A DNA stretch of 64,000 nt from Nitrospinales bacterium. GTDB taxonomy: Bacteria > Nitrospinota > Nitrospinia > Nitrospinales > VA-1. Position numbers and translations under genes: made by a program. The stretch covers positions 2,450,236 to 2,514,235 of the forward strand of contig OZ252246.1 of the NCBI GenBank assembly GCA_965249625.1, written 5' to 3'. Positions 40,380-60,651 of the stretch are shown here, piece after piece (the first letter of the stretch is position 1; the number at the start of each line of letters is the position of its first letter). Below the pieces are notes generated by a model. It was given only the letters and a program-made list of their open reading frames with translations. It had not been told where the DNA came from and ran no database searches.

Positions 40380-43070
40380 TTATGAAATAACGTCAAAACA
40401 AATTAACCTTAATCTTTCCTGATCGAGTGATAACGCATTTGATGAAAATGCGGTATAGTCCTTTTCAAAATCTGGATTAAAAGTTTGCCTAAGGTTATAC
40501 AATGAAACCATCAACAGCTTCACATTTTCCTGGATTTGAAAATCTTTATAAAATTTCCGTAGTTCTTTGACCTGAACATGAAGCATAGGCTGATTCAAAA
40601 ATTTAATCAGTTCTATGCACTGTGTACGCTCTACATCCGGGTGATTGATGTAACCTTGAATGGTTGTGGCGATGGTTTGCTGGATGGGATCAACGGTTCG
40701 CGGAGCGGCTTCTAATGATTTTTGTTCTTGATAGGAACATAATATATCATCCATGATTTTTTCTTGCAGGTCAAAAATTGAATGGAATATCTCTTGCTCT
40801 ACAATTCTCGGGGTTTCCTTATCGCATGCTATTAAATTAGCGATCACATAGCGATTATCAATAATTTTATTCTCTTTAAGATCAAAATATTTCCAGAAAT
40901 GGAATACCTCATTGGCTTGGCTGTTGGTTTGAAAATAGAAAAATACTCCCTTTGATCCAGGTCGAATGAGACCAGAGTGAATTCCATCGGGTAAAGTTTC
41001 CAACATTTCCTGCCCGCCCGAATCTAGTAATCCCTGCAATTGTTGCTTGAGAAATTCGTTGCTGGCCAGTTCCGTAAATTGCTCCTCTTCTTCGATCACC
41101 GAACCGTCCTCATCCATAATTCTTCTAAGAGTGTTAAAGTTTCTTGGATTTATGGTTTCCCCGAGAACGCTGGCATCCAGAAATCCCGCTTGATCGATAG
41201 ATGCAATCTTTGTTGTTAAACTTTCTACAAGTCCTAACAGTCTTTCTAATCCTTCATCGGGAAACATATTAAAAATGGAAAGAGTATCAAACTCCGTCCC
41301 AAGACGGTCAATTCGGCCTGCCCTCTGGATCATCCGGGTAGGATTCCAGTGAAGGTCGTAATTTATTAGATGACCGCAATCCTGAAGATTTTGCCCCTCA
41401 GACAACACATCTGAAGAAACTAAAATATCTATTTCTTTATCTGTCCCTATCCAGTCCTCTTTTTCATTAGCCTTTGGAGCAAAACCCTGAACCAGTTTTT
41501 CTTTTTCCTTTGGGTTAGCACCACTATCCATTCTACGAATTGCCGCATTGTCCAGTTGCTCAAGAAATTCCACAGCAGAGGGGTTTTTAAAATCACCAAT
41601 ATTTTTAAATAAATACCGGACTGTATCTTTATAGTGACTGAAAATCAGGACTTTTTTGCCACGGAGTTCCCCTGACAAATGCTCCTTAAGGCATTCCAGT
41701 TTTACGTCTTTTTCAGGCCCGATATCTTTTATGCGCTGCCAAATATTGGTTAGAATATCTCGGTCCTGTTGCAATGCATCATGAAGCCTCCTCAAATCAT
41801 ATAAAGAAGGATCAATCGTTTCCATTCCTTCTAATATATGTTTGGCCTCTTCGCTGGCATCCAAATCCTCAGCCAAGGATGATGGAACCGCATCATCCTC
41901 TTCATCTTCCCGTTCGAGGTATCTCAAGGCCTTATGAAATTCACTGCTTCTCAATAATTTCCCATCTAAAACGTAACTTTCAAAAGTTTTGAGAAATGCC
42001 AAAGCTCGTCGAATACTGATCCGAAATGCTTCTATACTGGACTCAAACCGCTTCAGGTAACGACTTTTAAAAATACCCACTAAAGCCTGTTCGCGGCCAA
42101 CTTCAAACTCATCGATTTCAGCCCCTTCTTTCTTATAATTCTCCAAATTGTATTGAGCGAATCTGAGACTATCGACACCCGATACTATATCCTCATAGAT
42201 TCCGGCATAAGTTGCTTCCAGGTTATATTGAATAGTTCGTAATCTTCGTTTAGGAAAATGTATTTTTTTGCCATTAATGGTGGCATCGGGATAAGCTCTG
42301 CGAATAAAAGGGCGCGTTCTGCGAACGACAATCTCTTCAAGAAGGTTGAAAAGGGCAATGGCGCTATTTCCCATCCTTGAGTCTCTGCGGACTTGCAAAA
42401 AATATCTGCGCAAATCGCCAATGCCACAGGCCGAGAAATAACTTTGGTCCCCACGGGTAATAAGACAAAGCTGGTTGTAAAGATCAAACAAATCGTTGTT
42501 GATGGGAGTTGCCGTCAATAGAATTATTTTTTTCCTGGCCCCTTCACGGCCTCGCCCACCATTAGCGCCTAAAACAAGTTCCAGATTTAAATATCTATTA
42601 GACCCCTTATTGCGAAAATTGTGGGATTCATCGATTAAAATAACATCTACATCTCCATAGGGTTCTGGGTCAAACTCATCTCTTCCCAAAGCTTCTTGAG
42701 ATAAAATTTTACCCGCAATGGAAGCATGGTTTAATTCACGCTCCCACATCTCCCTTAAAGCGGCGGGACATACGATAAGAGCCTTTTGCCGGAGATGGTA
42801 AGCGAAATCTTCCAAAAGCTTTTTCCCGATCCAGGTTTTTCCAAGGCCTACAGAATCGGCAATCATTACACCGTCATATCGCAATAAAATCTTTCTGGCT
42901 TTCTTGACCGCATCCTCCTGGAATTCGGCCAGTTCCACCGCGGACCGGGTGCCCGCTGACTCTTCTGAAGAAAGGTCTCCCTGAAAATACTCATAAAGGG
43001 CCTTCATATAGACTTGATAGGGAGTGTATTCGGTTCGGCCAAACTTGGAATCGTCCAGAAGCTGGATCAA
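40380..43070 (-). CDS. SNF2-family helicase/translocase, the downstream part of a split HKD-SNF2 gene (frame stays open up to ~43279)
   Basis: Motif I DSVGLGKTW, motif II ILIDESHNFRN, motif III LLTATPINN, motifs V/VI LSEGQNLQD...NYDLHWNPTRMIQRAGRIDRLG. The upstream in-frame sequence LEQWYQRQWDDSVDF continues the PLD-domain protein. Confidence 0.85.
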   Translation of the reverse strand: MIQLLDDSKFGRTEYTPYQVYMKALYEYFQGDLSSEESAGTRSAVELAEFQEDAVKKARKILLRYDGVMIADSVGLGKTWIGKKLLEDFAYHLRQKALIVCPAALREMWERELNHASIAGKILSQEALGRDEFDPEPYGDVDVILIDESHNFRNKGSNRYLNLELVLGANGGRGREGARKKIILLTATPINNDLFDLYNQLCLITRGDQSYFSACGIGDLRRYFLQVRRDSRMGNSAIALFNLLEEIVVRRTRPFIRRAYPDATINGKKIHFPKRRLRTIQYNLEATYAGIYEDIVSGVDSLRFAQYNLENYKKEGAEIDEFEVGREQALVGIFKSRYLKRFESSIEAFRISIRRALAFLKTFESYVLDGKLLRSSEFHKALRYLEREDEEDDAVPSSLAEDLDASEEAKHILEGMETIDPSLYDLRRLHDALQQDRDILTNIWQRIKDIGPEKDVKLECLKEHLSGELRGKKVLIFSHYKDTVRYLFKNIGDFKNPSAVEFLEQLDNAAIRRMDSGANPKEKEKLVQGFAPKANEKEDWIGTDKEIDILVSSDVLSEGQNLQDCGHLINYDLHWNPTRMIQRAGRIDRLGTEFDTLSIFNMFPDEGLERLLGLVESLTTKIASIDQAGFLDASVLGETINPRNFNTLRRIMDEDGSVIEEEEQFTELASNEFLKQQLQGLLDSGGQEMLETLPDGIHSGLIRPGSKGVFFYFQTNSQANEVFHFWKYFDLKENKIIDNRYVIANLIACDKETPRIVEQEIFHSIFDLQEKIMDDILCSYQEQKSLEAAPRTVDPIQQTIATTIQGYINHPDVERTQCIELIKFLNQPMLHVQVKELRKFYKDFQIQENVKLLMVSLYNLRQTFNPDFEKDYTAFSSNALSLDQERLRLICFDVIS

Positions 43071-43258
43071 CTGATCCTTGAAATCAACCGAGTCATCCCA
43101 TTGCCTTTGGTACCATTGTTCTAAATCAATGATGGCACGCGCTCCGACTTCACTTTTTATCAGTTGTCGATTGGAATCTTTTATTTGAGGACTGGGACTT
43201 TGATCGGCGAGCCAGGAGACGGCTTGTTGCGCATGAATATCATTTGCCTCGGAAGGGT

Positions 43259-43780
43259 CTAATAAAAAATCTTGTGGGCCAAATTAAGTTCGCGGTTAGA
43301 AGTTAAACCAGGAGTGGTAAAATTTGAGGAACCAACAATGGCCACAACAGGGCGAAATCGCTCGAAGAGCATTTGCTGACCAGGCCGGTCAGAATAAAAC
43401 AGCCAGCATTTGGCATGAAGAAATCCCTTATCATACATCTTGACTTCTACCTTCTGGTTTTGAAGGTAGGCAATCAGGTCTTCAATGAGTTTTAGAGTTT
43501 TTTCCTCAAATGGTAGAATCTCCAAATCTTTTTTTATAAGACCCTGAACATTATCTGGTCCTGGCTTAAGCCCTACTTGCTCACCAGAAGTAGGTTCGGC
43601 TCCAAGGAGCAATCGGAAAGAACCCAGAGAATTGAGGCCATTTTCCAAAAGCCCAAATCCCCCGACCGTAAAATAAGCCGTCGCCACATCCAGAGACTGG
43701 CCTTTATATTCTTCAAGAAGCCCGCTCAGAACCTTAGCGAGAATATGCTCTTGGTTATCTATGACGTATGGGATTTTCAA
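43259..43780 (-). CDS. Single-HKD phospholipase-D-family nuclease domain, the upstream part of the split HKD-SNF2 gene
   Basis: FLHAKCWLF...VGSSNFT (the HxK...GSxN motif). It ends at a TAG immediately after a T6 run (plus-strand A6 at 43264-43269). Confidence 0.8.
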   Translation of the reverse strand: MKIPYVIDNQEHILAKVLSGLLEEYKGQSLDVATAYFTVGGFGLLENGLNSLGSFRLLLGAEPTSGEQVGLKPGPDNVQGLIKKDLEILPFEEKTLKLIEDLIAYLQNQKVEVKMYDKGFLHAKCWLFYSDRPGQQMLFERFRPVVAIVGSSNFTTPGLTSNRELNLAHKIFY

Positions 43781-43861
43781 AGTATTCTATTTATCCTCAA
43801 GCCATTTTCCCTAGTGTTTCATAGCATAGAACTGATATTTCAAATAAAGCGAACCTCATTT

Positions 43862-44875
43862 TTACTTAATCCCCCATCGCCGACTACCTGTGCGGGTTGG
43901 AGAACCACATTGACTTAGCAATTGTCTATATCGAGCTGGTTCAAGCGATTTTTTTATTACTTCAAAGTAAACTCTCCCACCGGAACGTCTTCGAAAAAGA
44001 ATTAAACAGGGCCTATCCCGATAATCCAGTTCGTGAATTACTAAACGAGTCGTGTGATTGGAGTATCGTGTCATAGTCAGGTGGTGATCTTCCTTAGTTG
44101 CTCGGTTTTGTAAATGCACAGTGATACTTCCCCCTTGAAGATTAGGCAGACCAAAAAATGGTTTAGCTGCTTCCATTGGTATTTGTATTTGACTACCACC
44201 AGCCCCTGTTTCTCTATCCATAATCTCAAGGATCAGATCCCCCTTACGAGCTCCTCCAAAACCCCTAGAACCTGTTCCATTACCACCTCTTCGCTTACTC
44301 CAGGTAAATGTTGAAGCAACACGCGCCTCTGCTCTTTTAACCCCAAAGTCCTCCTTCTCTTTCCTGTAACTATCAAGTAGTGAAGAAGTTAGGGTTTCAC
44401 TGGATGATTCAATCATGCTGTGCCACATTAAAAGGCTTTTATTAGGATTGGAAAAATTCATTACAGTCGCGAATTCAATATTGTGCTTAAGTCCGTCGAG
44501 AGAAAGATTATTGCTTCCAACAATAATAGTTCCAGAATCATTAAGGACAAACCAAACAACTTTGGGATGGAAGATTCCATTATAATGCACTAGAAGTTTT
44601 ACGGTAACTCCATCTGTTTGCATATTTGCCAAGGCATTTGGGTCTGTAATTCCATGATCTGTACCAACATATGCTATGATTTCCCTGTTATTTTTTCTCT
44701 TTAACCAACTTTTTGCAGCTTTTCTGACCAAGCTCCATCCTGGATTCGTTACAGCATAAAAATACAAGCGTAATTCTGAGGCTTCCCGGTCTGAAGATAA
44801 TTTTTGAATAAACGTGTCATGAAAATTGGTAAGGGTCCAAGTTGCACCCTGGGCAGTTGGAAGAAAGTTTTTCAT
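43862..44875 (-). CDS. Single-HKD PLD-family endonuclease (NgoFVII/BfiI-like architecture) with an uncharacterised basic C-terminal domain
   Basis: FHPKVVWF...IIVGSNNLS HKD motif in the N-terminal half. ATGA overlap with the methyltransferase stop (44872-44875). Confidence 0.7.
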   Translation of the reverse strand: MKNFLPTAQGATWTLTNFHDTFIQKLSSDREASELRLYFYAVTNPGWSLVRKAAKSWLKRKNNREIIAYVGTDHGITDPNALANMQTDGVTVKLLVHYNGIFHPKVVWFVLNDSGTIIVGSNNLSLDGLKHNIEFATVMNFSNPNKSLLMWHSMIESSSETLTSSLLDSYRKEKEDFGVKRAEARVASTFTWSKRRGGNGTGSRGFGGARKGDLILEIMDRETGAGGSQIQIPMEAAKPFFGLPNLQGGSITVHLQNRATKEDHHLTMTRYSNHTTRLVIHELDYRDRPCLILFRRRSGGRVYFEVIKKSLEPARYRQLLSQCGSPTRTGSRRWGIK

Positions 44876-47800
44876 TTCATGCTCCTGATTTCATTTGCTA
44901 GATTTTTATCGACACTGCCGATTTGATCTTCAAGTGCTTCATTAAATTTGGTTGTAGCTTCGGTAATGGCACGTTTGTTGGGTTTAGTGTTAAGTAATTC
45001 GTGAAATTCGGTTCCGATATGCTCAGCCCATGGTTGGTCCAAAAATGGAATTGGAATATCTTCAAGATGGGTTATTTTTAACTCGGCAAAAAGTTTGCCT
45101 GTGCGTGGCTGGATTGATCTGAAAAACCACGTAGCAAAACGCGAGTTTAGAACTGCACAAATATAGATTGCAGCCTTCCATTTCATCTTTGGTAGTGGTA
45201 CACAAATGAAAAAATTGTTAGAGAAAAAGTAGCCTTCAGTGTCGATTGCGGCAAGAATGTAATCTCCCGTTCTTCTCACAATGATTTTATGGGATTTATA
45301 GAGGTTAGAATCACCAAGGTTGAAGTATTCACCTTCCTCTCGTTTGAAAACAAGTGGGTCCAGTTGAATATACTTACCTTCCCAAGTTATCTGCATTGGG
45401 GAAATCTCATCGCGCCCAAAAATGAGGGGTTCGCAGAAATCCCCAACAATTTTTTCTAGGAATAGCTTTTCTCGAACGTTTCCCGAATGTATGCCCTCGC
45501 GAAGCGTGAATATCTTGCCCATTGGAACGCCAATAGAACACGCAATATCCAGCAATTCTTGAAGGCGTGGCGAAAGACATAAGTTGAAACGAAACTGTTT
45601 GGTCGTTTTGAAAGTAGATTGTTTAATGAGGTTTACAAGTGATGTCTGGATTTGTCCATCTGGGACCTCGGGAATGCAGCGAATCAGGTGTTCCTCTTTT
45701 GGTATGTAAGCTTTAGCCACCAACGAACACACATCAATACTGGCTTGGTCGAAGGCTTTTCCCCAATGCGCAATTTCCACTATTGAGGTTCGTTGTAATA
45801 AGAGCTGGCGAATACTAGGGTAATTCTTCAAAAGTATAATGTCGGGCAATAGCAAGCCAATAAATCCATCCGATATTACCAAATCGGACGATAGCTCAGA
45901 AAAAATAGCAAACGTATCGACTAATCCCTGTTGCGAGCCCTCAAATTGGAAACGGATAAGGTCTTTTGTTTGAGGGGAGATATAAGCACCCCATGGTGGA
46001 TTCCCAATTACTGCGTCGAACCCGCCATGTTCCATTTTTTGGATTACCTGGGTAGTTCCAGAATCGGGACCGTAAAAAACTTCAGGGAATTCCAATTCCC
46101 AATGGAAAAAGCGGTTAATTTCGAAATCTTTTATTGTATTGCTAACAATTTTCCTAGATTGGTCTGTAAGACCATCCGTTTTAAATTTAACATCCAGCCA
46201 TTCCTGAGATTCTTGTGATTTCAAGAAATCCACAGCGTCCCTGACTTCTTTCTTATTTTTGCCTTTTCCTACTTTTCGAATGGGGTTGCTGAACCATTGG
46301 CTCGTATAAATATCAAGGATTCGTTTGAACGGAACCAAAGCATCCGAGGCTTTATTAAATTCCTCTCGTGACTGTTTTACTTGAGCGCTGGTGACATCGG
46401 ACAACTCGCCGACATGACGCATCAAACCTGTTGCCAACATCAAACCGGTAAACTGGCTTCCGCCAAAAAGCAGAGATTGACCCTTTTCAATTTCCTTCTG
46501 AGCTTCCTCCACATTTGAGCCAATCAAGGAGTTTCCGCATTTCATATGATGATCCAGGAAAGACAGGGGAGCACCCAGTGTGAAACAATCCAACCACAAA
46601 GAAACTTTAGCCAGTTCCACCGCCATGGGATTGAGGTCCACGCCGTATATACAACGTTTGAGCACATATCTTTTAAGAAGATTGACATCGGTCAGGCGGT
46701 TACGGTCGATGGTAATCCTCTGTTCGTCCATCTCTTTGAGAATGGTCTGGCGGGTTTCCTCCAAATGGGCGAAAACAGGATTCCAGGGAAACTTGTTTAA
46801 GAAATCAATGATCTTGTCTGTGATGAAATCAACCGCCTCCACGAGAAAGTGACCTGACCCCATAGCCGGGTCGAGAACTTTGATGTTGAATAATTCATCC
46901 ACGACATGGCGGTAGGTGAATGCGACTTTTTCAGGGTCGTCCTCTTTCATTTTTTGCTTTTCAAAAGCTTCCTTCCGCTTAACGGCCTCCTTGTAGGCTT
47001 GTTGAGCTTCCCGAAATTTGCTCCGCATCTCTTGTTCGAATTTTTCTTCCAGCACCGGACCTACAGCGTTTTCGATGATGTATTCAACGATATGATCCGG
47101 CGTGTAATAGGACCCCGTGGCTTTACGCTCGTGTTTATCGTTTTCAAGATAGACGGTTCCTTTCGATAGAGTACGTTCTTTCGCGTTTTTTCCCCGGCCT
47201 ATGGTAAGGATTTTCTGATTATCTGCTTGTTTGTAAGGAATAATGAGTTCTGTTTTCTTTCCTTTAACCACCGCCATCTTTTCAGGAGCAATGCGAACCT
47301 TGAATTCCAACAAACCTTCATAAATAGAACCCAATTGGCGAACGCCAAGGGATTTGAAATCGATGGATACCAAATCCTGCCTCTTATCATCGATATCTCG
47401 TGTCAATAGGTTGATGGCTTTGGCAAGTTGGAGGTCGGGAACTTTGTTGGAATTAAGAAACCGGGCGTTCTCGGCCTCGGGGCTTGTATCATTATCGTGA
47501 ACGTCGTTCAGGAAAAGGCCGCCGTTATATACCGGAACATTGAGATTAGCATCTCCCCGATCAATGATTTCAAACAAACGTGTTAATCTTTCATAAAGCG
47601 TATATTGATTATTCTTATAATGTTTTTTGAGTTTGGAGTCCGCTTCATCGACTAAGGTTCCTGCCACACCCGCAATTTCTGTTTTGAGCTTATGCAAACT
47701 GGCTTCAAAATAACCACGGGTTTCCTTGACGGGCAATAAATCCCTCGCTTCCGCGTATAGGAGAAACAATAACCGATAAAGAAAAGTGAGGGTCCCTTGA

Positions 47801-49158
47801 AAAACCTTATCCAAATTTTCCTGAGAAAATTCCGCATGCAATCCTTCTCTATCCCGCGCATGGGCAACGAATCCCTCTGAAAGGTGAGGAAATATCTTTT
47901 CAAATACCCTTTCCTTAAGCCGCTTCCCAAGTTCCTTTGCATAATTCTTGCTTTCTGTCAGGAGTCTGTCCAGAAAAGTGGTGGTTTTCTCTTCTCCTTC
48001 AATCGTTAGAGTGGTTGGTTCAAATGACTGCCTGCGAAATAACAGCCAAAAATATCTAAAGGCTTCGGCGGGGTCTCCCACCCTTTGTCCACTTTGAGCC
48101 AGGACTTCTTCCAAATCGATTTGATAATAGTTGGTTGCCCTGGAATGGGCATGCCGGGAATAAAGCCTCCAGATTTTTCCATTAGTCACTATGGCCCATG
48201 GGGCTTCTCCCACTTCCAGCAAGCTGACAACAACCGCTCCGGGGTTTTCTTCAGGACTTTCCTTATCCCTTTCAGGGTCTTTTCCATCCAGGGAACGACC
48301 CCAAGGGTAAACCAAAGAGAAAGCGAGAGGCTGGCTATCGCTGGTTGAAGCCATTAGACGGTAGTCTGGTTCGGCAATATCGCTTCCCGCTTTTTTCCCT
48401 ACCTTATATGAGAAACCTAGTATTTTTAATGTGGACTCCAGGAGTTCTTTTCTCAGAACTTCTTCCTTTTGTCCCCTCATTTTTGGAGACTTCTCTAAAA
48501 ACAGTTTGTTCAATTCTAAAAATGCAGGTTTCGGGTTCTCCGACCATTCAGGGAAATCCCGGAGCCTCTCTATAAGGTAATAATCCGAAAATAAAGCGCG
48601 GTTATTGAAGAATTCTTCCGACCAATCGGCAATGGCATAAGCAGAGATAAACTTATCGTACTGAGCAAAGGGATCGCTTTCTGTATAGGTGAATCTCTTT
48701 AAAACCCGCAGGTGAACGCGAGAAGGTTTTTTCCGTTCAACAGTTAAAGTTCGTGGGCGAATTCCCACTTGGGGAGAACCTATTGTCTTTTTTGAGGGGC
48801 TGGTTAAGGGAAGATATTTTTCCAGCAAAACAAAATCGATTCGTTCGTAGTCGCTGGTCAGAACTAAAAGATAGTTTCCGGTCCTGTTACGAAAGTTCCG
48901 GGCAAGCGCACGGGTATGAGTTACGGTAACGCTGGTTAATTCGAATAAGTAGACTTGAAAAAGGCCATCCTCGTCAGCGAGCAACTCAATTTTCTTAATG
49001 GGCCGGAGAGTTCCTTCCGCGGAAATCCCCAGATTGCTGGCAGTCTGTACAATACGGCTATTTGTATTGAACCCCAAGCTTGAGAAAAAACCTTCCAAAG
49101 CATCGGCACTGGAAAGTTGTTGAATATCATGGAGGGTAAGGTCTCGGTCAAATATCAT
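44872..49158 (-). CDS. Giant (1428 aa) type IIG-like gamma-class N6-adenine DNA methyltransferase with a degenerate N-terminal nuclease-like domain
   Basis: ALFSDYYLIERL...PDYRL...WAIVTNGKIWRLY N-terminal module. YYTPDHIV, motif I LDPAMGSGHFLVEAV and motif IV VIGNPPWG. A C-terminal region of about 390 aa is a presumed TRD. Confidence 0.85.
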   Translation of the reverse strand: MIFDRDLTLHDIQQLSSADALEGFFSSLGFNTNSRIVQTASNLGISAEGTLRPIKKIELLADEDGLFQVYLFELTSVTVTHTRALARNFRNRTGNYLLVLTSDYERIDFVLLEKYLPLTSPSKKTIGSPQVGIRPRTLTVERKKPSRVHLRVLKRFTYTESDPFAQYDKFISAYAIADWSEEFFNNRALFSDYYLIERLRDFPEWSENPKPAFLELNKLFLEKSPKMRGQKEEVLRKELLESTLKILGFSYKVGKKAGSDIAEPDYRLMASTSDSQPLAFSLVYPWGRSLDGKDPERDKESPEENPGAVVVSLLEVGEAPWAIVTNGKIWRLYSRHAHSRATNYYQIDLEEVLAQSGQRVGDPAEAFRYFWLLFRRQSFEPTTLTIEGEEKTTTFLDRLLTESKNYAKELGKRLKERVFEKIFPHLSEGFVAHARDREGLHAEFSQENLDKVFQGTLTFLYRLLFLLYAEARDLLPVKETRGYFEASLHKLKTEIAGVAGTLVDEADSKLKKHYKNNQYTLYERLTRLFEIIDRGDANLNVPVYNGGLFLNDVHDNDTSPEAENARFLNSNKVPDLQLAKAINLLTRDIDDKRQDLVSIDFKSLGVRQLGSIYEGLLEFKVRIAPEKMAVVKGKKTELIIPYKQADNQKILTIGRGKNAKERTLSKGTVYLENDKHERKATGSYYTPDHIVEYIIENAVGPVLEEKFEQEMRSKFREAQQAYKEAVKRKEAFEKQKMKEDDPEKVAFTYRHVVDELFNIKVLDPAMGSGHFLVEAVDFITDKIIDFLNKFPWNPVFAHLEETRQTILKEMDEQRITIDRNRLTDVNLLKRYVLKRCIYGVDLNPMAVELAKVSLWLDCFTLGAPLSFLDHHMKCGNSLIGSNVEEAQKEIEKGQSLLFGGSQFTGLMLATGLMRHVGELSDVTSAQVKQSREEFNKASDALVPFKRILDIYTSQWFSNPIRKVGKGKNKKEVRDAVDFLKSQESQEWLDVKFKTDGLTDQSRKIVSNTIKDFEINRFFHWELEFPEVFYGPDSGTTQVIQKMEHGGFDAVIGNPPWGAYISPQTKDLIRFQFEGSQQGLVDTFAIFSELSSDLVISDGFIGLLLPDIILLKNYPSIRQLLLQRTSIVEIAHWGKAFDQASIDVCSLVAKAYIPKEEHLIRCIPEVPDGQIQTSLVNLIKQSTFKTTKQFRFNLCLSPRLQELLDIACSIGVPMGKIFTLREGIHSGNVREKLFLEKIVGDFCEPLIFGRDEISPMQITWEGKYIQLDPLVFKREEGEYFNLGDSNLYKSHKIIVRRTGDYILAAIDTEGYFFSNNFFICVPLPKMKWKAAIYICAVLNSRFATWFFRSIQPRTGKLFAELKITHLEDIPIPFLDQPWAEHIGTEFHELLNTKPNKRAITEATTKFNEALEDQIGSVDKNLANEIRSMK

Positions 49159-53152: not shown

Positions 53153-53182
53153 CCGCTTCATATTAACTAATTGTATCTTGCT

Positions 53183-54535
53183 ATGGCGGAAGCGAAAGAC
53201 ATTGACGACAGCTTGGAGTTCCTCCGGTATTTTGAAAAAAACACCGAGAACTCCGACCTCGGTACTCTCATCCGGGAGAAGTTGAGTTTCGACAAAAAAT
53301 CTCTGAATCTTTTAGGTTGTCAGCTTAAAGAAGAGGATTTCAAAATCATCGCTGGAGCCAGTCCTCTTAAATCTCTTTCTTTCCTGAATCTTGAACAAAC
53401 AGGTTTGAATTCTAGTGGACTGCAATCGCTCAGCGCTTCCGACTGTTTTTGTAATCTGGAAAACCTTTCGCTGGCCAACAATAATCTCGACGACGAAGCC
53501 TTATTCTTCCTTTCCAAGTGCCGGGCACTGACGCTTCTGAAAGACTTGAGTTTATCCAGCAACGAAATCGGCGTACTGGGGGCCAAGGTTCTTTCTTTGG
53601 CAGAAGGCATGAACAATCTGGAGCGGTTGGACCTTTCTTACAACCGTTTGGAACCACTTGGCATTAAATCGCTTGCCGACTCAAAACTTGGCCGCCAAAT
53701 AACCGATATCAATCTTCGCGACACGGGGATTGGTGATGAGGGTTTAAGGTTTTTAACAAAGGCACCCCCTCTTGAAAAGATTCTCACGGTTGATCTTTCC
53801 GATAATGGTTTGACCCATGAAGGAATGGAGGCTCTGGCGCAGTCGCAGGTGTTTCCTAATCTCAAAGTTTTGATTCTGAACAACAACCATCTTGGAGATG
53901 ATGGAGTCTATGCCATGGCCGAGTCTCCCATGCTAGCAAAACTCGAAATCCTGATCATGCACAATAACGGATTGACCACCGATAGTGCCATTTCCCTTTC
54001 CACCTCTAAATCGATCACTCAACTTAAAACACTGGACCTGAATAACAACGATCTTCGTGCCGAGGGAGTGAAGGCACTGGCGGAATCCGCAAATATGAAA
54101 AATATGGAAACGCTGGATCTCGGCGAGAATAAAATCGGCCACAAGGGCGCAGAGGCCTTGGCGCAATCTCCTCATTGCGCCAGCCTGAAATCTTTGCGAC
54201 TGAACAACAATAATATTGCCGATCAGGGGGCCACGGCGTTGGCCTGTTCTACCACCCTGACTCAATTGGAATCTTTATACCTGGAAAACGAAAACTGGAT
54301 TCGTGCACAAGGTACCAAGGCAATTGCCGAGTCCAAAAATTTGTCCAGCCTTCGCCGGTTGGTACTCGCCTTGAATGCCATTGGCGATGAAGGCGCAATT
54401 TATCTGGCCAATTCCCACCCACTCTCCGGCCTGCATTTTTTAAACGTAGCGGGCAGCAAGCTGAGCCCCAGAGGGGAAGATGCCCTGCAAAAATCCGCAG
54501 CACTGACCAATCTTCAAGTTCTTGAAATTGTTTGA
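53183..54535 (+). CDS. Ribonuclease-inhibitor-type (RNI-like) leucine-rich repeat protein
   Basis: About 14 tandem 28-aa repeats of the form L..L.L..N.IGD.GA.ALA.S..L..L. No signal peptide seen. Confidence 0.8.
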   Translation: MAEAKDIDDSLEFLRYFEKNTENSDLGTLIREKLSFDKKSLNLLGCQLKEEDFKIIAGASPLKSLSFLNLEQTGLNSSGLQSLSASDCFCNLENLSLANNNLDDEALFFLSKCRALTLLKDLSLSSNEIGVLGAKVLSLAEGMNNLERLDLSYNRLEPLGIKSLADSKLGRQITDINLRDTGIGDEGLRFLTKAPPLEKILTVDLSDNGLTHEGMEALAQSQVFPNLKVLILNNNHLGDDGVYAMAESPMLAKLEILIMHNNGLTTDSAISLSTSKSITQLKTLDLNNNDLRAEGVKALAESANMKNMETLDLGENKIGHKGAEALAQSPHCASLKSLRLNNNNIADQGATALACSTTLTQLESLYLENENWIRAQGTKAIAESKNLSSLRRLVLALNAIGDEGAIYLANSHPLSGLHFLNVAGSKLSPRGEDALQKSAALTNLQVLEIV

Positions 54536-54854: not shown

Positions 54855-55520
54855 TTAAGGAGTCATTTCAACCAACTTTTTGATGGTTTTTTCAATGCCT
54901 TCGGCCACTTCCGAGATGCTTTGCCCTGTCATATAGGCCGGGGTCGAGACGATTTTGTTCTCCGCATCCAGCACAAAATCAGTGGTGGCGCAGTCCTGAT
55001 GTTTGCTGCCCATCATTTCGATCTTGCCACTGCATTCCTTGTCGTTGCCGATGGTCAAGACCGGTTTGGCCGGTTCACTTTCATAGATTTTTGCCATCAT
55101 GGCCGGGGCGATGCACAAAACTGCCTGCGGTTTTTGTTTGGCGGCAAACTCCTTCACCAGCCGCATCACTTCCGGGTGGACGTCGCAGTTTTCACCTTTG
55201 ACCGCGAAACTGGAGAGATTTTTTGCCGCGCCGAATCCACCGGGGAACACCAGCGCGTCAATATCATCCGCTTTGACAGTAGCGATATCTTTGATCTCGC
55301 CCCGGGCGATGCGTGCCGCTTCGACCAGAACATTGCGTTTTTCTCCCGCCGCTTCTTCACCCGTGAGATGGTTGACCACATGCATCTGATCGACATTGGG
55401 GGCCATGCACACCGCCTCGGCTCCAGCCCGGTTGATCGCAAGTAAAGTTATGACCGACTCGTGGATCTCCGCACCGTCATACACCCCGCAACCCGAAAGC
55501 ACCACACCAATCTTTTTCAT
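54855..55520 (-). CDS. elbB: ElbB-type DJ-1/PfpI-family protein (glyoxalase III-like / isoprenoid biosynthesis protein ElbB)
   Basis: MKKIGVVLSGCGVYDGAEIHESV start and the CIAP nucleophile-elbow context. Confidence 0.85.
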   Translation of the reverse strand: MKKIGVVLSGCGVYDGAEIHESVITLLAINRAGAEAVCMAPNVDQMHVVNHLTGEEAAGEKRNVLVEAARIARGEIKDIATVKADDIDALVFPGGFGAAKNLSSFAVKGENCDVHPEVMRLVKEFAAKQKPQAVLCIAPAMMAKIYESEPAKPVLTIGNDKECSGKIEMMGSKHQDCATTDFVLDAENKIVSTPAYMTGQSISEVAEGIEKTIKKLVEMTP

Positions 55521-55724
55521 GATTGTCCCCCCATCAAAATAAAAATTGAGTTTAGTTTTAAATTGAAACGTTCAACTAATTTTACCACCCACTGGGCGTG
55601 GGTCCAACTTAAAACCACTCTTAGAAGAAAGGACAAAAAGGGGCTTGGCAATGAGATAACAAATAATTTTCAAAATTGAAGCAAAGGCTGAGTTAACTTC
55701 ACTCACAAGCCAATAAAAAACTAA

Positions 55725-58700
55725 TTACCGTACTTTTTCTTTTTTAGCAGTTAGGGTAGAAGTTTTTTTGAATGGTATACCAAGCCAACCACAAACTTGC
55801 TGCCTGAGTTGATAATCCTCTTCAAAAAGCAAAAAATGCATTGAGGTAAGTATTTGTAAAATTCTATTATTAAAAGGCTCGTTTTTAAGTTCCTTAATTA
55901 AACCTTTTACCTCTGAAGTAGGGAATGACTGAAAATGATCATATTTAATTGAAATATCAACAAACCTGTTTCCAATATTTCCGTCACTTTTCAAAATTTC
56001 CGCGAAGGTCAATCGAAGATTTGGAGAACCAACCGATGAAGATACTTTTTTTATAAAAGAAATAATTGCAATTTGCGAAAGGAAATAAATTAACCCTCTT
56101 ATTAGTTTTTTTATTCTCTTTTCATCTGCCTTTGAATTTTCCTTTTTTATTTCTTCATAAAAACTTTCAATAAAGTCGTCAAGAGAAGACTCTAGGAGAA
56201 CAGAAAAGGATTTAATTGCTCTCATCCCCAAAGCATAACAAGCATTAGCCAAGTCAATTTTTTTCGCACTTTCCAACGAGCCCGCATAACTTCTTAAAAT
56301 TTGACCGGATACTTGAAGAGCTTTTGTAGCTCTGTTAAAATCTGAAGAATCGGAATCAGAACTAACTTCACTTGAGGATCTTTGTTCAATCTCATCTTTT
56401 GCTTTATTTAATTCCTGTCTGACCTCTCTGGGAGAAGTATCCTCTAAATTAATTAACTCAACATCAATTTTGTCATCCAAACCATCTAAAAATTTAAAGT
56501 CCTCAGAAAAATCACAAGGAGGGTATTGTTTAAATGTTCCATTTGTTTGTTCTAGTACCGTCTCAAGAATTAGAGGGTCCTTGCTGAAATGACTTAATAA
56601 TATTATTATGTTTGCATAATCCTCTCTGTGCAGACCGAGAGCAATTTTGTTAAATATGTTTTTGATCTCATCTTCATGGAAATGGTCAGCCAAATACTTT
56701 GCAAGGAAATAGTAAAAAGAAAACTGGTACTTAAAACAAAATAAATTATTTATTTCAGAGAGTATTGTTGCAAAACATAAGTGTTCAACAACCTTACCAA
56801 AATTCAAATTTAATGCGAATTTCTTATTATGCGAATTATGAAATTCTTCGAATTCTTCTTTTCCTATTGCTGTACTTTCATTTTCAAATAATATGTAAGC
56901 CAGCTCTGACAAATAAGTATTTAAAGTTACCAAATCGACCTTGCCAATATTAGACTCCCGAAGCTTGGCAGATATCAAAAACTCAAATAATTCCCCATAC
57001 GACCCGGAAATCAGAATATGCTTTTTATTAGCCTCTATTTGCTGAAGTAATGTCAAAATAAATACAGGGACCGCAGGAAACATCCTTGAAGCCAAAACGC
57101 TTGACAACAATCTATCTATCCGATCAACCTCCCTGATAAACTCCTGCCCATTGCATGAATATTCCTGACCTAAAATCAACCATTTTTCCACCATTTCACA
57201 TCTCAAGTAATTTTTAAATGGCATAATTTCTAAATTGATGAAATCTTTAAATGGATTTTCTTCTTTTTTGGAATATTTCAATTTTTCAAAATTCAAGGAG
57301 TCATCTGCAACTAAAAAGAATTTTGTGAAATATTGCCTTAACTTTTCAACGATTTTCACTTTTCCCGCATCGTTGACTTCAAACAAATGAACATTATCTA
57401 TAATAGCGACTTTTTTCTCCTTTTCTAATTGCCTATATTTTCCCCAATCAGTATTGTCATATTGCTCCACAAAACATTCCTCTATATATTTTTCAAACTT
57501 CCCATCTTTCAACAAGTGTTCATTAAATCTTGAGCCGTCAAAATAAATTGGAACTAACCCATTTTTCCTAAAAATCGAAAAAGCTTGTTTTGTTAATGCC
57601 GTTTTACCAGAAAACCGCTCCCCTACAACCAACAGGTTATTACTTAAAATATAATCTGGGACCTCTTCACTTGAGATATATTTGACCGGGTTAGAATCGC
57701 CTGAAAGGTCCCCTCCTTCCAAACACCTAAGATCCGGAAACACAAATATATCATCAAGGGAAACATGCGACTTTCTTGGATGTGAATATGTAGTTCCTAA
57801 ATCTTCAATGAATTCAGAAATATTCTTTCCAAACTGAAATGTATTTTTGACAAGAACAGGGTTTCTCTTAAACTCTAGCCACTCTGTTGACTTTTCACGA
57901 ATTTCCTTATATCCACATATTTTATTTTCAAATTCATAAAATAATTTCTTTTGCTTTCGGTTTTTAAAATCAATTAAAACTACATTGAAAGAACTATTAA
58001 GTGAGTTTTTGGAGTCATTCAAAACGCCCCCTTCAAAAAATTCATTCCTTGACGAATGAGTAAACTCTTTCGAGAAACTTCCAGGAACATGCTCATGCCC
58101 GGTTAGTATTAAATCTGAGCTTTCTTCCACCATACCTTTAAAAACTCTCGAATTATTAGATTCAAGCCAACTATATGGATGGTGAAAAACTGAGATTATC
58201 AAAGAGTTTGGAGGCGATTTTAAAGTGATTTCAACCGGAAAAAGCAATGTGCCCTGTTGTTCTTTTTTTGTAGAAATCCATGCCGTGTTGAAACAATTTA
58301 TAATAATCTTTTCCTGTTCAAACTCAAATTCGCGAGTCCAATAAATTTTATTTTTTATATTTTGGTCCTCAACTTGCTCAATAAAATTGAAAAAATTTGT
58401 TTGAGGCTCAATTACGATATCTACCAATTCCTTTTTGAATGTTTTTTTATCTTTTATTTTTTCAATAATTGTGTCTCTAACTATATTTTCATTTGATATG
58501 TCACAATCATGATTACCCGGAACAAATATTGTTTTGACTGGGATGTCCTTAAATCTGCTTTCAACCTCACAAAGCAACTCGAAAAAAAACTCTTCAGCTA
58601 TGTCAAATTGTTCTTTTTTACCGGAAAACGAAATATCCCCTGTAAATATTAATAAACAACCTTTGACTTCGGGGTCAACATTTGCGATTGCGTTTATTAA

Positions 58701-58778
58701 ATGTGGGAGTTTTTTATGAATTGGTTCATTGGCCTTTTCAATATGGATATCGCTTAAATGAATTATTTGGATTTTCAT
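55725..58778 (-). CDS. 1017-aa fusion protein: calcineurin-like metallophosphoesterase + P-loop NTPase + ~550-aa helical C-terminal region (candidate single-gene defence/conflict system)
   Basis: All MPE motifs are present: D10-x-H12 (LSDIH), G47-D48 (FTGD), GNHD 88-91, HH 199-200 and GHEH 227-230. Walker A is GERFSGKT (386-393) and Walker B-like is VAIIDN (457-462). The gene is strikingly AT-rich relative to its neighbours. Confidence 0.8.
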   Translation of the reverse strand: MKIQIIHLSDIHIEKANEPIHKKLPHLINAIANVDPEVKGCLLIFTGDISFSGKKEQFDIAEEFFFELLCEVESRFKDIPVKTIFVPGNHDCDISNENIVRDTIIEKIKDKKTFKKELVDIVIEPQTNFFNFIEQVEDQNIKNKIYWTREFEFEQEKIIINCFNTAWISTKKEQQGTLLFPVEITLKSPPNSLIISVFHHPYSWLESNNSRVFKGMVEESSDLILTGHEHVPGSFSKEFTHSSRNEFFEGGVLNDSKNSLNSSFNVVLIDFKNRKQKKLFYEFENKICGYKEIREKSTEWLEFKRNPVLVKNTFQFGKNISEFIEDLGTTYSHPRKSHVSLDDIFVFPDLRCLEGGDLSGDSNPVKYISSEEVPDYILSNNLLVVGERFSGKTALTKQAFSIFRKNGLVPIYFDGSRFNEHLLKDGKFEKYIEECFVEQYDNTDWGKYRQLEKEKKVAIIDNVHLFEVNDAGKVKIVEKLRQYFTKFFLVADDSLNFEKLKYSKKEENPFKDFINLEIMPFKNYLRCEMVEKWLILGQEYSCNGQEFIREVDRIDRLLSSVLASRMFPAVPVFILTLLQQIEANKKHILISGSYGELFEFLISAKLRESNIGKVDLVTLNTYLSELAYILFENESTAIGKEEFEEFHNSHNKKFALNLNFGKVVEHLCFATILSEINNLFCFKYQFSFYYFLAKYLADHFHEDEIKNIFNKIALGLHREDYANIIILLSHFSKDPLILETVLEQTNGTFKQYPPCDFSEDFKFLDGLDDKIDVELINLEDTSPREVRQELNKAKDEIEQRSSSEVSSDSDSSDFNRATKALQVSGQILRSYAGSLESAKKIDLANACYALGMRAIKSFSVLLESSLDDFIESFYEEIKKENSKADEKRIKKLIRGLIYFLSQIAIISFIKKVSSSVGSPNLRLTFAEILKSDGNIGNRFVDISIKYDHFQSFPTSEVKGLIKELKNEPFNNRILQILTSMHFLLFEEDYQLRQQVCGWLGIPFKKTSTLTAKKEKVR

Positions 58779-58917
58779 AGCCTTACCTTAAAGAAAATCA
58801 ATTCCGAATTTGGATGCTACTCCGTTTTTGGGGGAAATGCTAGTGAGTAACCCTTCAATCGTCTCCGGATTACTTATAGGCGGTCGCGGGAGCGTCACCG
58901 CCAAACTGGCCCCGCGC

Positions 58918-60651
58918 CTAGCGGCGGGTAATTGGAAGGCGCCTGTCTTTGCCGAAGGCTTTGGGGGTGATTTTTACGCCCGGGGGACCCTGCCGGCGTT
59001 TGTATTCATTAAGATCCACCAGCCGCGCGATGCGCTGGATTTCGGATTTGGAAAGTCCCTTCACCTTTATTTCGTCGACCGGCAAATCTTCTTCGATATA
59101 ACGCAACAGGACCGGGTCGAGCAGGTCGTAAGGCGGTAACGAGTCGGTGTCTTTTTGATCGGGTCGAAGTTCCGCCGAAGGTTCTTTGGTGAGAACATTG
59201 CTGGGGATGATTTCTGTTTCTTCGTTGAGCCAATGAGAAAGTTTATAGACGAGGATTTTCGGCACGTCTTTGATCACGGCGAATCCGCCAGCCATATCGC
59301 CATAGAGCGTGCAGTAACCGACACTGACTTCCGATTTGTTGCCCGTCGTTAAAACCATCCAGCCGAATTTGTTGGACAGCGCCATCAATATATTGCCGCG
59401 AATGCGAGCCTGCAGGTTTTCTTCCGCCAGACCGGATTCTGTATCTTTGAATAATTTTTTCAGCGTGTATTCGTAAGCCTTCATGGCCCCGGCGATGGGA
59501 AAGATGTACTTCTTTATCCCCAGGTTTTTCGCCAGCGTTTTGGAATCGTCGATACTGCCCTGGGAGGAATGGAGAGACGGCATCAGCACACCAATTACGT
59601 TTTCGGCGCCCAATGCCCCTACCGCTATAGCGGCGGTCAGGGATGAATCGATGCCGCCGCTCAAACCCAGAACCACTTTGGAGAATCCGTTTTTGTGAAT
59701 ATAGTCGCGGGTGCCCAGCACCAGAGCGGAATAAACTTCCTCCTCTTCCGACCTGTCCTGATAGGTATGCGCGGGAAGTGCTGGAACTTTTTTTGCTTTT
59801 TCTTTCGATAACGATGCAGGGGCCTTGACGCTTTTAATTCCCGAAGCCTTCGTCTTATTTGATTTCGGCGACAAGGTCACGTCGGCAAAAATGATTTCTT
59901 CCTCGAAGGAGTTTCCCTGCGTGATGATTTTTCCTTTAGCGTCCACCACCAGACTCTCGCCGTCGAACACCAGTTCGTCCTGCCCGCCGACCAGGTTGAC
60001 ATAGGCAATCGGGCATTTATAACTTTTGGCGCGTTTGATGATTATTTGCCGTCGAGCTTTGCCCTTGCCTTTGTGGTAAGGCGAGGAAGAGATATTGAGC
60101 AGAAGGTCAATATGTTTGCTTAAAGTTTTCCCTGGTCCCGATTCTTCCCAGATGTCTTCGCAGATGGTCAGTCCAATCTGCACTCCTTTTAAAGAAAAGC
60201 GCAGGGGTTCGTCGCCTTCGCTGAAGTAGCGTTTTTCATCGAACACGCCGTAATTGGGCAGGAGCATTTTGCGGGCAGTTGCCACATGTTTGCCATCGTG
60301 TATCAGGGCGGCAGAGTTATAAAGATGTTTGCCTTGTTGTTCGGCGAATCCGATCACGGCTGTCAGACCACGTGTGCAGGGAGCGATTTTTTTTAAAGTT
60401 TGCCGGCAATCTTTGATGAAACTTTTTTTCAGCAGTAAATCTTCCGGCGGGTAACCGGTGATCATCAGTTCCGGGAACAGCACCACATCGGCGCCCATTT
60501 TCAGGGCTGTGGCGCAGGCCGATTCCACCTTCCTGGCATTGGCCTCGAATCCCCCGACCAGTCCGTTAACCTGGGCCAGGGCAAGGCGAACTCCCTCCCG
60601 AGAGACGGGTGTCTGGCTCTTTCTCGATTTAGAGACTTTTTTTATAGCCAT
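58918..60651 (-). CDS. nadE: Glutamine-dependent NAD+ synthetase
   Basis: N-terminal CN-hydrolase domain (FPEL..., CEDIW) and a C-terminal synthetase domain with the LGLSGGIDSS PP-loop. Confidence 0.9.
   Translation of the reverse strand: MAIKKVSKSRKSQTPVSREGVRLALAQVNGLVGGFEANARKVESACATALKMGADVVLFPELMITGYPPEDLLLKKSFIKDCRQTLKKIAPCTRGLTAVIGFAEQQGKHLYNSAALIHDGKHVATARKMLLPNYGVFDEKRYFSEGDEPLRFSLKGVQIGLTICEDIWEESGPGKTLSKHIDLLLNISSSPYHKGKGKARRQIIIKRAKSYKCPIAYVNLVGGQDELVFDGESLVVDAKGKIITQGNSFEEEIIFADVTLSPKSNKTKASGIKSVKAPASLSKEKAKKVPALPAHTYQDRSEEEEVYSALVLGTRDYIHKNGFSKVVLGLSGGIDSSLTAAIAVGALGAENVIGVLMPSLHSSQGSIDDSKTLAKNLGIKKYIFPIAGAMKAYEYTLKKLFKDTESGLAEENLQARIRGNILMALSNKFGWMVLTTGNKSEVSVGYCTLYGDMAGGFAVIKDVPKILVYKLSHWLNEETEIIPSNVLTKEPSAELRPDQKDTDSLPPYDLLDPVLLRYIEEDLPVDEIKVKGLSKSEIQRIARLVDLNEYKRRQGPPGVKITPKAFGKDRRLPITRR

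Follow-up and report, generated by a model that had tools for sequence, protein, structure and literature searches.

The locus described here raises the question of what function may be served by a solitary open reading frame (ORF) of 1017 amino acids (aa) lodged between elbB and nadE in a Nitrospinales bacterium. The ORF lies in a stretch of 64,000 nucleotides (nt) of contig OZ252246.1 (assembly GCA_965249625.1, positions 2,450,236 to 2,514,235 of the forward strand), which is referred to as the window. A preliminary description of this DNA had read the ORF as a recently acquired fusion of a metallophosphoesterase and an NTPase, and had proposed it as an undescribed and unnamed defence system. 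The first part of that reading is upheld by the present analysis, while the second is not: the protein belongs to the named and validated DS-8 family (PDC-S60 in PADLOC-DB) and is therefore not an undescribed system, but a new instance of DS-8 in another host phylum. The probability that the gene is a Nitrospinota member of DS-8/PDC-S60 that follows a general sensor-switch-effector logic is put at about 0.85, and by family membership it is predicted to encode a single-protein STAND (NACHT-like) anti-phage immune protein. Full-length family membership, intact active-site residues, a three-module fold, mobility, effector modularity and defence-type homologue neighbourhoods are established here.

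DS-8 is hereby documented in Nitrospinota, uncultured marine nitrite oxidisers with little-studied phage defences. As a discovery this adds little, since the family has already been named by annotation resources and validated; its residual value lies in the questions of the DS-8 substrate and trigger, in a C-terminal domain that is an orphan by fold, and in a nadE-elbB hotspot in Nitrospinaceae.

Family membership and domain anatomy

The window protein passes the curated NCBIfam equivalog model NF053861.1 (DS8_antiphage) with 929.4 bits against a cutoff of 790 (E = 2.3e-279), in an alignment that runs from end to end (window residues 7-1001 on profile positions 1-994 of 994). It also matches two PADLOC-DB v2.0.0 models of PDC-S60 (PDLC05050, 8.4e-80, residues 283-1007; PDLC05051, 1.7e-31, residues 3-906), a computational candidate of 2023 without a stated mechanism, as well as the Pfam families Metallophos (1e-11, residues 4-232), nSTAND_NTPase4 (PF24406; 9.6e-11, residues 639-692) and, weakly, AAA_14. 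All three profile libraries concur on this protein, which NCBI annotation rules would already name "anti-phage protein". Pfam NACHT (PF05729) finds no match in the window protein, and a "faint" NACHT match is recorded in one homologue (P0095).

DS-8 was described in the DefensePredictor work (bioRxiv, January 2025; Science, April 2026; PMC13092281). Its E. coli representative, WP_032203427.1, is a single protein of 1014 aa with a metallophosphatase and a NACHT domain that protected strain MG1655 from phages, and each of the substitutions D52A, N84A and K375A abolished this defence (PMC13092281). In the primary screen (Table S7), the negative logarithm of the efficiency of plating was 5.6 for Bas1, 4.1 for Bas19 and 3.7 for Candy, 2.2-2.6 for Bas11, Bas25, Bas26 and SECphi17, and 1.2-1.3 for T4 and T5 (PMC13092281). 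The catalytic and Walker A mutants that had been proposed for the window protein have already been made on E. coli DS-8, so that this experiment has been done on a family member, the only one among those considered for which phage protection is demonstrated. When the first 399 aa of the E. coli protein are compared with the N-terminal 416 residues of the window protein by BLASTP, the three essential residues are all seen to be kept: D52 falls on D48, N84 on N89 and K375 on K392. Both proteins are collinear in their metallophosphatase, NACHT-like NTPase and helical C-terminus, whereas they differ in host (Enterobacterales for the one, marine Nitrospinota for the other).

The family is large, with 1,840 matches at E<=1e-30 among 1.84 billion representatives of clusters at 50% identity, and among the best 150 of these 1,840 almost all are collinear with the window protein and about 1,000-1,060 aa in length. 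In phage genomes, a tblastn search found no relative of the window protein. The system appears as a single gene without an obligate partner, given that the insert that carries it holds one gene and that no neighbouring gene is common to the seven homologue loci examined. DS-9A shares with it a related phosphoesterase domain (NCBIfam DS9_1, 4.4e-11, residues 4-173 of the window protein), but the match reaches 42 bits against a cutoff of 420, and DS-9 is a two-gene system without an NTPase in which the phosphoesterase is paired with a HAD phosphatase.

An alignment of 56 diverse homologues, with identities of 27-58% to the window protein, shows that all the motifs named in the preliminary description are present and that most of them do not vary. 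Invariant are D10, H12, G47-D48, P87-G88-N89-H90-D91-C92, H199-H200 and G227-H228-E229-H230 of the phosphoesterase, G391 in Walker A, and L341 and P348 of the LxDIFVxPDL segment (341-350) that precedes the NTPase; Walker A K392 is a lysine in 52 homologues and Walker B D461 an aspartate in 55. The domain borders required some correction. A phosphoesterase domain does occupy the N-terminus, but its fold extends beyond the approximately 235 aa first ascribed to it, to about residue 295; the linker, taken to be of about 150 aa, measures some 75 aa; and the final ~550 aa, described as one helical region, split into about 165 aa of STAND subdomains (523-684) and a helical C-terminal domain of about 330 aa.

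The full-length AlphaFold2 model, built on the same alignment, has a predicted local distance difference test score (pLDDT) of 85.6 and a predicted template modelling score (pTM) of 0.68, and its secondary structure displays a winged-helix pattern at residues 616-682. In Foldseek searches of the PDB, the centre of the model matches the NACHT-containing NLRs at E-values between 5e-8 and 2e-6 (NOD2, 5e-8; NLRC4, 1e-7; NLRP3, ~1e-6), and model and matches together describe a tripartite layout of effector, STAND NTPase and C-terminal module. This is also the arrangement of Avs and bNACHT proteins, with which the family shares an N-terminal effector, a central NLR-like STAND NTPase, a C-terminal module and the exchange of effectors on a conserved chassis; the authors of DS-8 had tied it to bNACHT01 by HHblits (PMC13092281). 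It differs in that the window protein matches nSTAND_NTPase4 and not Pfam NACHT, the fold being nevertheless NLR-like. The logic of effector, NTPase switch and C-terminal module that had been proposed for this protein is borne out by the NACHT matches, the invariant motifs, the TIR-bearing relatives and the defence or mobile contexts of homologues. The best PDB match of all is 9a6c_B, an integrative model of B. subtilis YydD-YydB (E = 1e-15, target template modelling (TM) score 0.55). It is a tentative lead: the pair may represent a related form of the phosphoesterase-NTPase architecture, divided between two genes. The YydB/YydD literature yielded nothing functional.

Several observations weigh against the assignment or against its functional consequences. 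Identity to E. coli DS-8 is only 29% over the part compared (E = 2e-41). The C-terminal domain, all-helical when residues 690-1017 are modelled alone (pLDDT 90.1, pTM 0.88), has no significant match in the PDB (best E = 0.41) or among viral predicted structures (best E = 0.69). It is also compact, non-repeat and evenly conserved, with small length variation and a mean pairwise identity of 0.33, compared with 0.36 in the phosphoesterase, 0.30 in the nucleotide-binding domain and 0.33 in the helical and winged-helix subdomains, unlike the TPR-like or diversifying sensors typical of Avs and bNACHT. Because of this even conservation, the lack of repeats and of a structural relative, and the dissimilarity to Avs sensors, the sensor role of the domain is only an assumption. 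At the second acidic position of Walker B (57393-57398), the window protein carries an asparagine, N462, as do nine of the 56 homologues, whereas 46 follow the D-D majority; an asparagine after D461 could alter hydrolysis, and some family members might in this way hydrolyse ATP more slowly. Finally, the immediate neighbours of the gene in the window are housekeeping and not defence genes, the 139-nt region upstream of it holds no sigma-70-like promoter, and no terminator was found between it and either nadE or elbB.

Since there is no promoter upstream and no terminator toward nadE or elbB, expression in the Nitrospinota host is no more than putative. The lack of a promoter-like site in the upstream gap, together with the D-N Walker B and an extreme mismatch with the host in G+C content at third codon positions (GC3), would fit a silent or non-functional passenger in recently acquired AT-rich DNA. 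The ORF, however, is intact across 1017 codons and keeps all the invariant residues of the family, a good ribosome-binding site (AAGGTAAGG, a Shine-Dalgarno-like box) stands directly 5' of its ATG, and 16% of the family share the D-N Walker B; transcription may also read through from nadE, as no terminator separates the two genes. A passenger is on these grounds quite improbable, and the gene is better read as an intact DS-8 member.

Effector exchange, substrate and trigger

A tblastn search against plasmids yielded five full-length homologues, of which three are on Clostridium botulinum plasmids and the other two in Paenisporosarcina and Jeotgalibaca, together with TIR-annotated proteins from plasmids of Vibrio parahaemolyticus, Streptococcus and Lactococcus whose match is confined to residues ~300-1017 of the window protein. 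The Vibrio relative (873 aa, L089:5482-8100, V. parahaemolyticus plasmid NZ_CP034287.1) has a TIR_2 domain with a ThsB-like match (1.2e-20) at its N-terminus, and the remainder aligns collinearly with residues 322-1017 of the window protein (26% identity, E = 1e-59), the LxDxFVFPDL segment included. This relative scores 9.4e-97 on PDC-S60, which therefore pools at least two effector types, a phosphoesterase and a TIR version. The same NTPase and C-terminal chassis therefore bears either a phosphoesterase or a TIR domain, and the phosphoesterase is probably the effector, for which the swap with TIR represents the strongest evidence in this analysis. The preliminary description did not connect this combination with any named defence system, but comparative genomics had already counted calcineurin-like domains among the effectors that are joined to STAND NTPases (PMC8195603). 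In the main text of a survey of STAND receptors (Nature, 2026), phosphoesterase effectors do not figure.

Regarding the reaction catalysed, the preliminary description had left the choice between a nuclease and a nucleotide phosphodiesterase. In the Foldseek search of the PDB, the N-terminus matches SMPDL3B (5e-7), GpdQ (5e-7), Rv0805 (TM 0.62), purple acid phosphatases (TM 0.55-0.61), SMPDL3A (1e-5, TM 0.37-0.41) and Lmo2642. With SMPDL3A/B, GpdQ, the class III phosphodiesterases Rv0805/Icc and the purple acid phosphatases, the domain shares the fold and the full set of metal-ligand motifs, but only ~10-13% identity, and in the window protein it is fused to an NTPase switch. No single metallophosphoesterase stands out as the closest, and a substrate can therefore not be transferred from any of them. 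The favoured substrate, at roughly even odds, is an abundant nucleotide-type small molecule (an NTP or dNTP, an NAD-like compound or a different nucleotide diester) and not DNA ends, in view of the likeness of the domain to small-molecule phosphoesterases and of its exchange with TIR. An activity class different from this, from nucleic-acid cleavage and from cyclic-nucleotide signalling is given a low probability.

Many Avs and STAND effectors are nucleases, and within the same family and switch logic the phosphoesterase might instead degrade DNA or RNA of the phage, the host or both, in the manner of Mre11/SbcD. Sequence searches of the PDB gave weak partial matches only, among them those to Mre11/SbcD over motifs I-III (E = 3e-3), and the NCBIfam sbcD profile is met at E = 0.039. 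Against this, the TIGR00619 sbcd score is 13.8 bits for a cutoff of 77.65, which is no confident match, Mre11/SbcD is absent from the 50 top Foldseek matches of the full-length model in the PDB, where every phosphoesterase found is a small-molecule enzyme, there is no SbcC/Rad50-like partner, and TIR fills the equivalent slot in relatives. A nuclease is accordingly the unlikely member of the pair first proposed, and the structural matches favour small-molecule phosphoesterases.

The authors of DS-8 propose a signal as the target, by analogy with SMPDL3A, which cleaves cGAMP, on the basis of HHpred and AlphaFold3 comparisons with SMPDL3A/B (PMC13092281). The phosphoesterase would in that case destroy a specific cyclic nucleotide or other signal and not a bulk metabolite, which agrees with the Foldseek search, where SMPDL3A/B and two cyclic-nucleotide phosphodiesterases, Rv0805 and Lmo2642, are among the matches. 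SMPDL3A is, however, no closer to the domain than other enzymes (TM 0.37-0.41, against 0.55-0.63 for GpdQ, Rv0805 and purple acid phosphatases), the neighbourhoods of family members do not share a cyclase gene or any other gene for making a signal, and the loss of a signal would not obviously stop a phage, whereas the TIR swap suggests an effector that arrests the cell. Destruction of a signal is on balance rather improbable, and a small-molecule nucleotide substrate is retained as the preferred reading.

Under the sensor-switch-effector logic of DS-8, the protein would be an autoinhibited monomer in the uninfected cell, in which the conserved helical C-terminal domain would read an infection cue. 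Upon binding of ATP, the NACHT-like NTPase would drive oligomerisation, and the resulting clustering would switch on the N-terminal metallophosphoesterase domains, whose hydrolysis of a phosphoester substrate would stop phage replication, probably at the expense of the infected cell. The even conservation of the C-terminal domain and the wide range of phages that E. coli DS-8 blocks hint, as a matter of speculation, at a conserved cue instead of one phage protein; such a reading fits because that range spans Bas1, Bas19, Candy, SECphi17, T4 and T5. A bolder version is tentative and somewhat doubtful: the C-terminal domain might be a new kind of STAND sensor for a conserved, possibly non-protein or host-derived cue, and the effector might hydrolyse a specific nucleotide pool or metabolite by a chemistry so far undescribed. 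With relatives in which TIR takes the place of the phosphoesterase, and with no similarity of the Mre11 kind, fewer hypotheses are left for the DS-8 substrate and for the cue of the C-terminal domain.

Acquisition at the nadE-elbB site

The labels of both flanking genes are correct, ElbB scoring 331 bits on NF008747 (cutoff 180) and the glutamine-dependent NAD+ synthase 734 bits on NF010588 (cutoff 479), and both share the minus strand with the ORF, which starts with ATG and is the sole long ORF between them, as had been described. That it is far more AT-rich than its surroundings is confirmed by computation: G+C content (GC) is 0.324, versus 0.475 in the remaining window, and GC3 is 0.287, versus 0.52-0.63 in the neighbouring genes. 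Among 3-kb stretches of the window it has the lowest GC, about 4 standard deviations (SD) below the mean (0.467, SD 0.036).

Relatives of nadE were found in Nitrospinota, the best match (83%) being in the Nitrospinales genome OZ253582.1, and the nadE-elbB site could be compared in six related genomes. In three of them (L004-L006) it is empty, with the two genes 140-180 bp apart, and in the three closest relatives (L001-L003) the gap holds 1.9-2.1 kb of unrelated cargo. The cargo of L001 (11711-13657) comprises a gene for a HigA-like antidote together with a truncated killer gene, a gene of the UDG superfamily and a duplicated 3' fragment of nadE; that of L002 (11663-13524), an ion channel and a Gp49/HTH toxin-antitoxin pair; and that of L003 (10930-13053), two unknown proteins. 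The latter are adjacent (L003:11153-12674); the protein of 290 aa has a weak CDC48_N-like match, the protein of 227 aa no Pfam or PADLOC match, and the two may form an uncharacterised accessory or defence pair. As blastn homology to the relatives stops at ~58879 on the nadE side and restarts at ~55590 on the elbB side, the insert in the window is of ~3.3 kb and carries this gene alone. On the elbB side, the promoter-like sequence GGGTGGTAnAAT upstream of elbB is conserved and kept in the three empty-site loci.

In Nitrospinaceae, the gap that separates nadE from elbB is a hotspot where accessory cargo is exchanged by recombination. The nadE duplicate within the L001 cargo (L001:12540-12700, NadE residues 537-575), of which the window has no counterpart, points to more than one recombination event at the end of nadE. 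At the borders of the insert in the window, no convincing direct or inverted repeats, tRNA, integrase, terminator or Rfam element were found, and homologous recombination via the conserved flanks is the default guess for the route of insertion. The proposed horizontal acquisition of the gene is supported by the contrast in GC and GC3 and by the empty or differently filled sites of the relatives. Low GC is nonetheless a family-wide AT bias and not solely a mark of recent transfer here: DS-8 family genes fall below the GC of their flanks in all seven loci compared (L081-L088 and the window), by 3-18 percentage points, in hosts of 30%-63% GC.

The position of the gene between two housekeeping genes of the same strand could also be taken to mean that it encodes a housekeeping enzyme of repair or metabolism, such as an SbcCD-like complex or a phosphatase, and not an immune protein. 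The empty or otherwise occupied sites of the six relatives contradict this, as does the finding that the experimentally tested family member is an anti-phage protein (PMC13092281). Conserved housekeeping synteny was looked for across the homologue loci and not found; the closest homologue (P0002; 58% aa and 66.6% nt identity, GC 0.32), in another Nitrospinaceae genome, has unrelated flanks, and homologues lie in defence islands or mobile elements. One adjoins Gabija-like and type IV secretion genes, another, in Bacillus thuringiensis, is near a TIR protein, integrases and Cas9, a third resides within a RepB/DUF3560/SLT element, a fourth adjoins pAgo and transposases, and a fifth is found among AbiEii, type III restriction-modification, HepT/MNT and DUF3800 genes. 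A housekeeping role is therefore extremely improbable. The SbcCD-type repair variant was rejected on the sub-cutoff sbcd match, the Foldseek result and the lack of an SbcC-like neighbour, the nearby SMC gene being that of the chromosomal SMC (TIGR02168, 1058 bits).

Coordinates and surroundings

The features of the DS-8 gene and its flanks are collected in Table 1.

Table 1. Positions in the window of the DS-8 gene, the modules of its product, the insert and the flanking genes
Feature	Coordinates	Strand	Basis
DS-8 family anti-phage gene, 1017 aa + stop	55725..58778	-	ORF; NF053861.1 DS8_antiphage; PADLOC PDC-S60
N-terminal metallophosphoesterase (calcineurin-like) domain, probable effector, residues 1-295	57894..58778	-	Pfam Metallophos; invariant metal-ligand motifs; Foldseek
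Linker / pre-NTPase segment, residues 296-369	57672..57893	-	Conserved LxDIFVxPDL motif (341-350), invariant L341 and P348
P-loop nucleotide-binding domain, STAND/NACHT-like NTPase, residues 370-522	57213..57671	-	Walker A GERFSGKT (K392); Walker B VAIID461-N462; Foldseek NLRs
STAND helical and winged-helix subdomains, residues 523-684	56727..57212	-	nSTAND_NTPase4 (PF24406); model secondary structure; NLR matches
Conserved all-helical C-terminal domain, presumed sensor/regulatory module, residues 685-1017	55728..56726	-	Separate model; conservation
Inserted low-GC segment, ~3.3 kb, relative to related Nitrospinaceae	55591..58878	.	blastn homology breaks; GC 0.328
Promoter-like box upstream of elbB, conserved in relatives; native sequence resumes	55579..55606	-	TGGACC-16-TAAAAT, extended TG; GGGTGGTAnAAT
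Flank elbB (glyoxalase ElbB)	54855..55520	-	NF008747
Flank nadE (glutamine-dependent NAD+ synthase)	58918..60651	-	NF010588

A second likely defence operon lies in the window at 40380-49158, on the minus strand and about 6.5 kb from DS-8, from which it is separated by smc, a leucine-rich-repeat (LRR) gene and elbB. Its GC is 0.41-0.44, and it encodes a 1428-aa protein that matches PADLOC DrmMI / type IIG restriction-methyltransferase (1.6e-86), another of 337 aa that matches DrmC weakly, an unknown protein of 173 aa and a SNF2-like helicase of 896 aa with "HKD+Snf2" (6.3e-54) and DrmD matches. The NCBIfam matches of this operon (DISARM DrmD, BREX PglX) are all under their cutoffs.

The LRR gene (53171-54535, plus strand) adjoins smc and encodes a 454-aa protein that is 72-91% identical in relatives and has a sub-threshold match to the STM4015 family only, with no PADLOC match. 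Between elbB and this gene, a cluster of ~7 kb is present in L005 (12713-19403), with equivalents in L002 and L006, and absent from the window and from L001. In L005 it comprises genes for an epimerase/dehydratase, WbqC, two radical-SAM/SPASM proteins, a GT2 glycosyltransferase and a methyltransferase, and a GGDEF-PilZ gene. The elbB-LRR gap was considered as a defence hotspot and rejected as such, given that L005 holds sugar-modification genes and the GGDEF-PilZ gene there.

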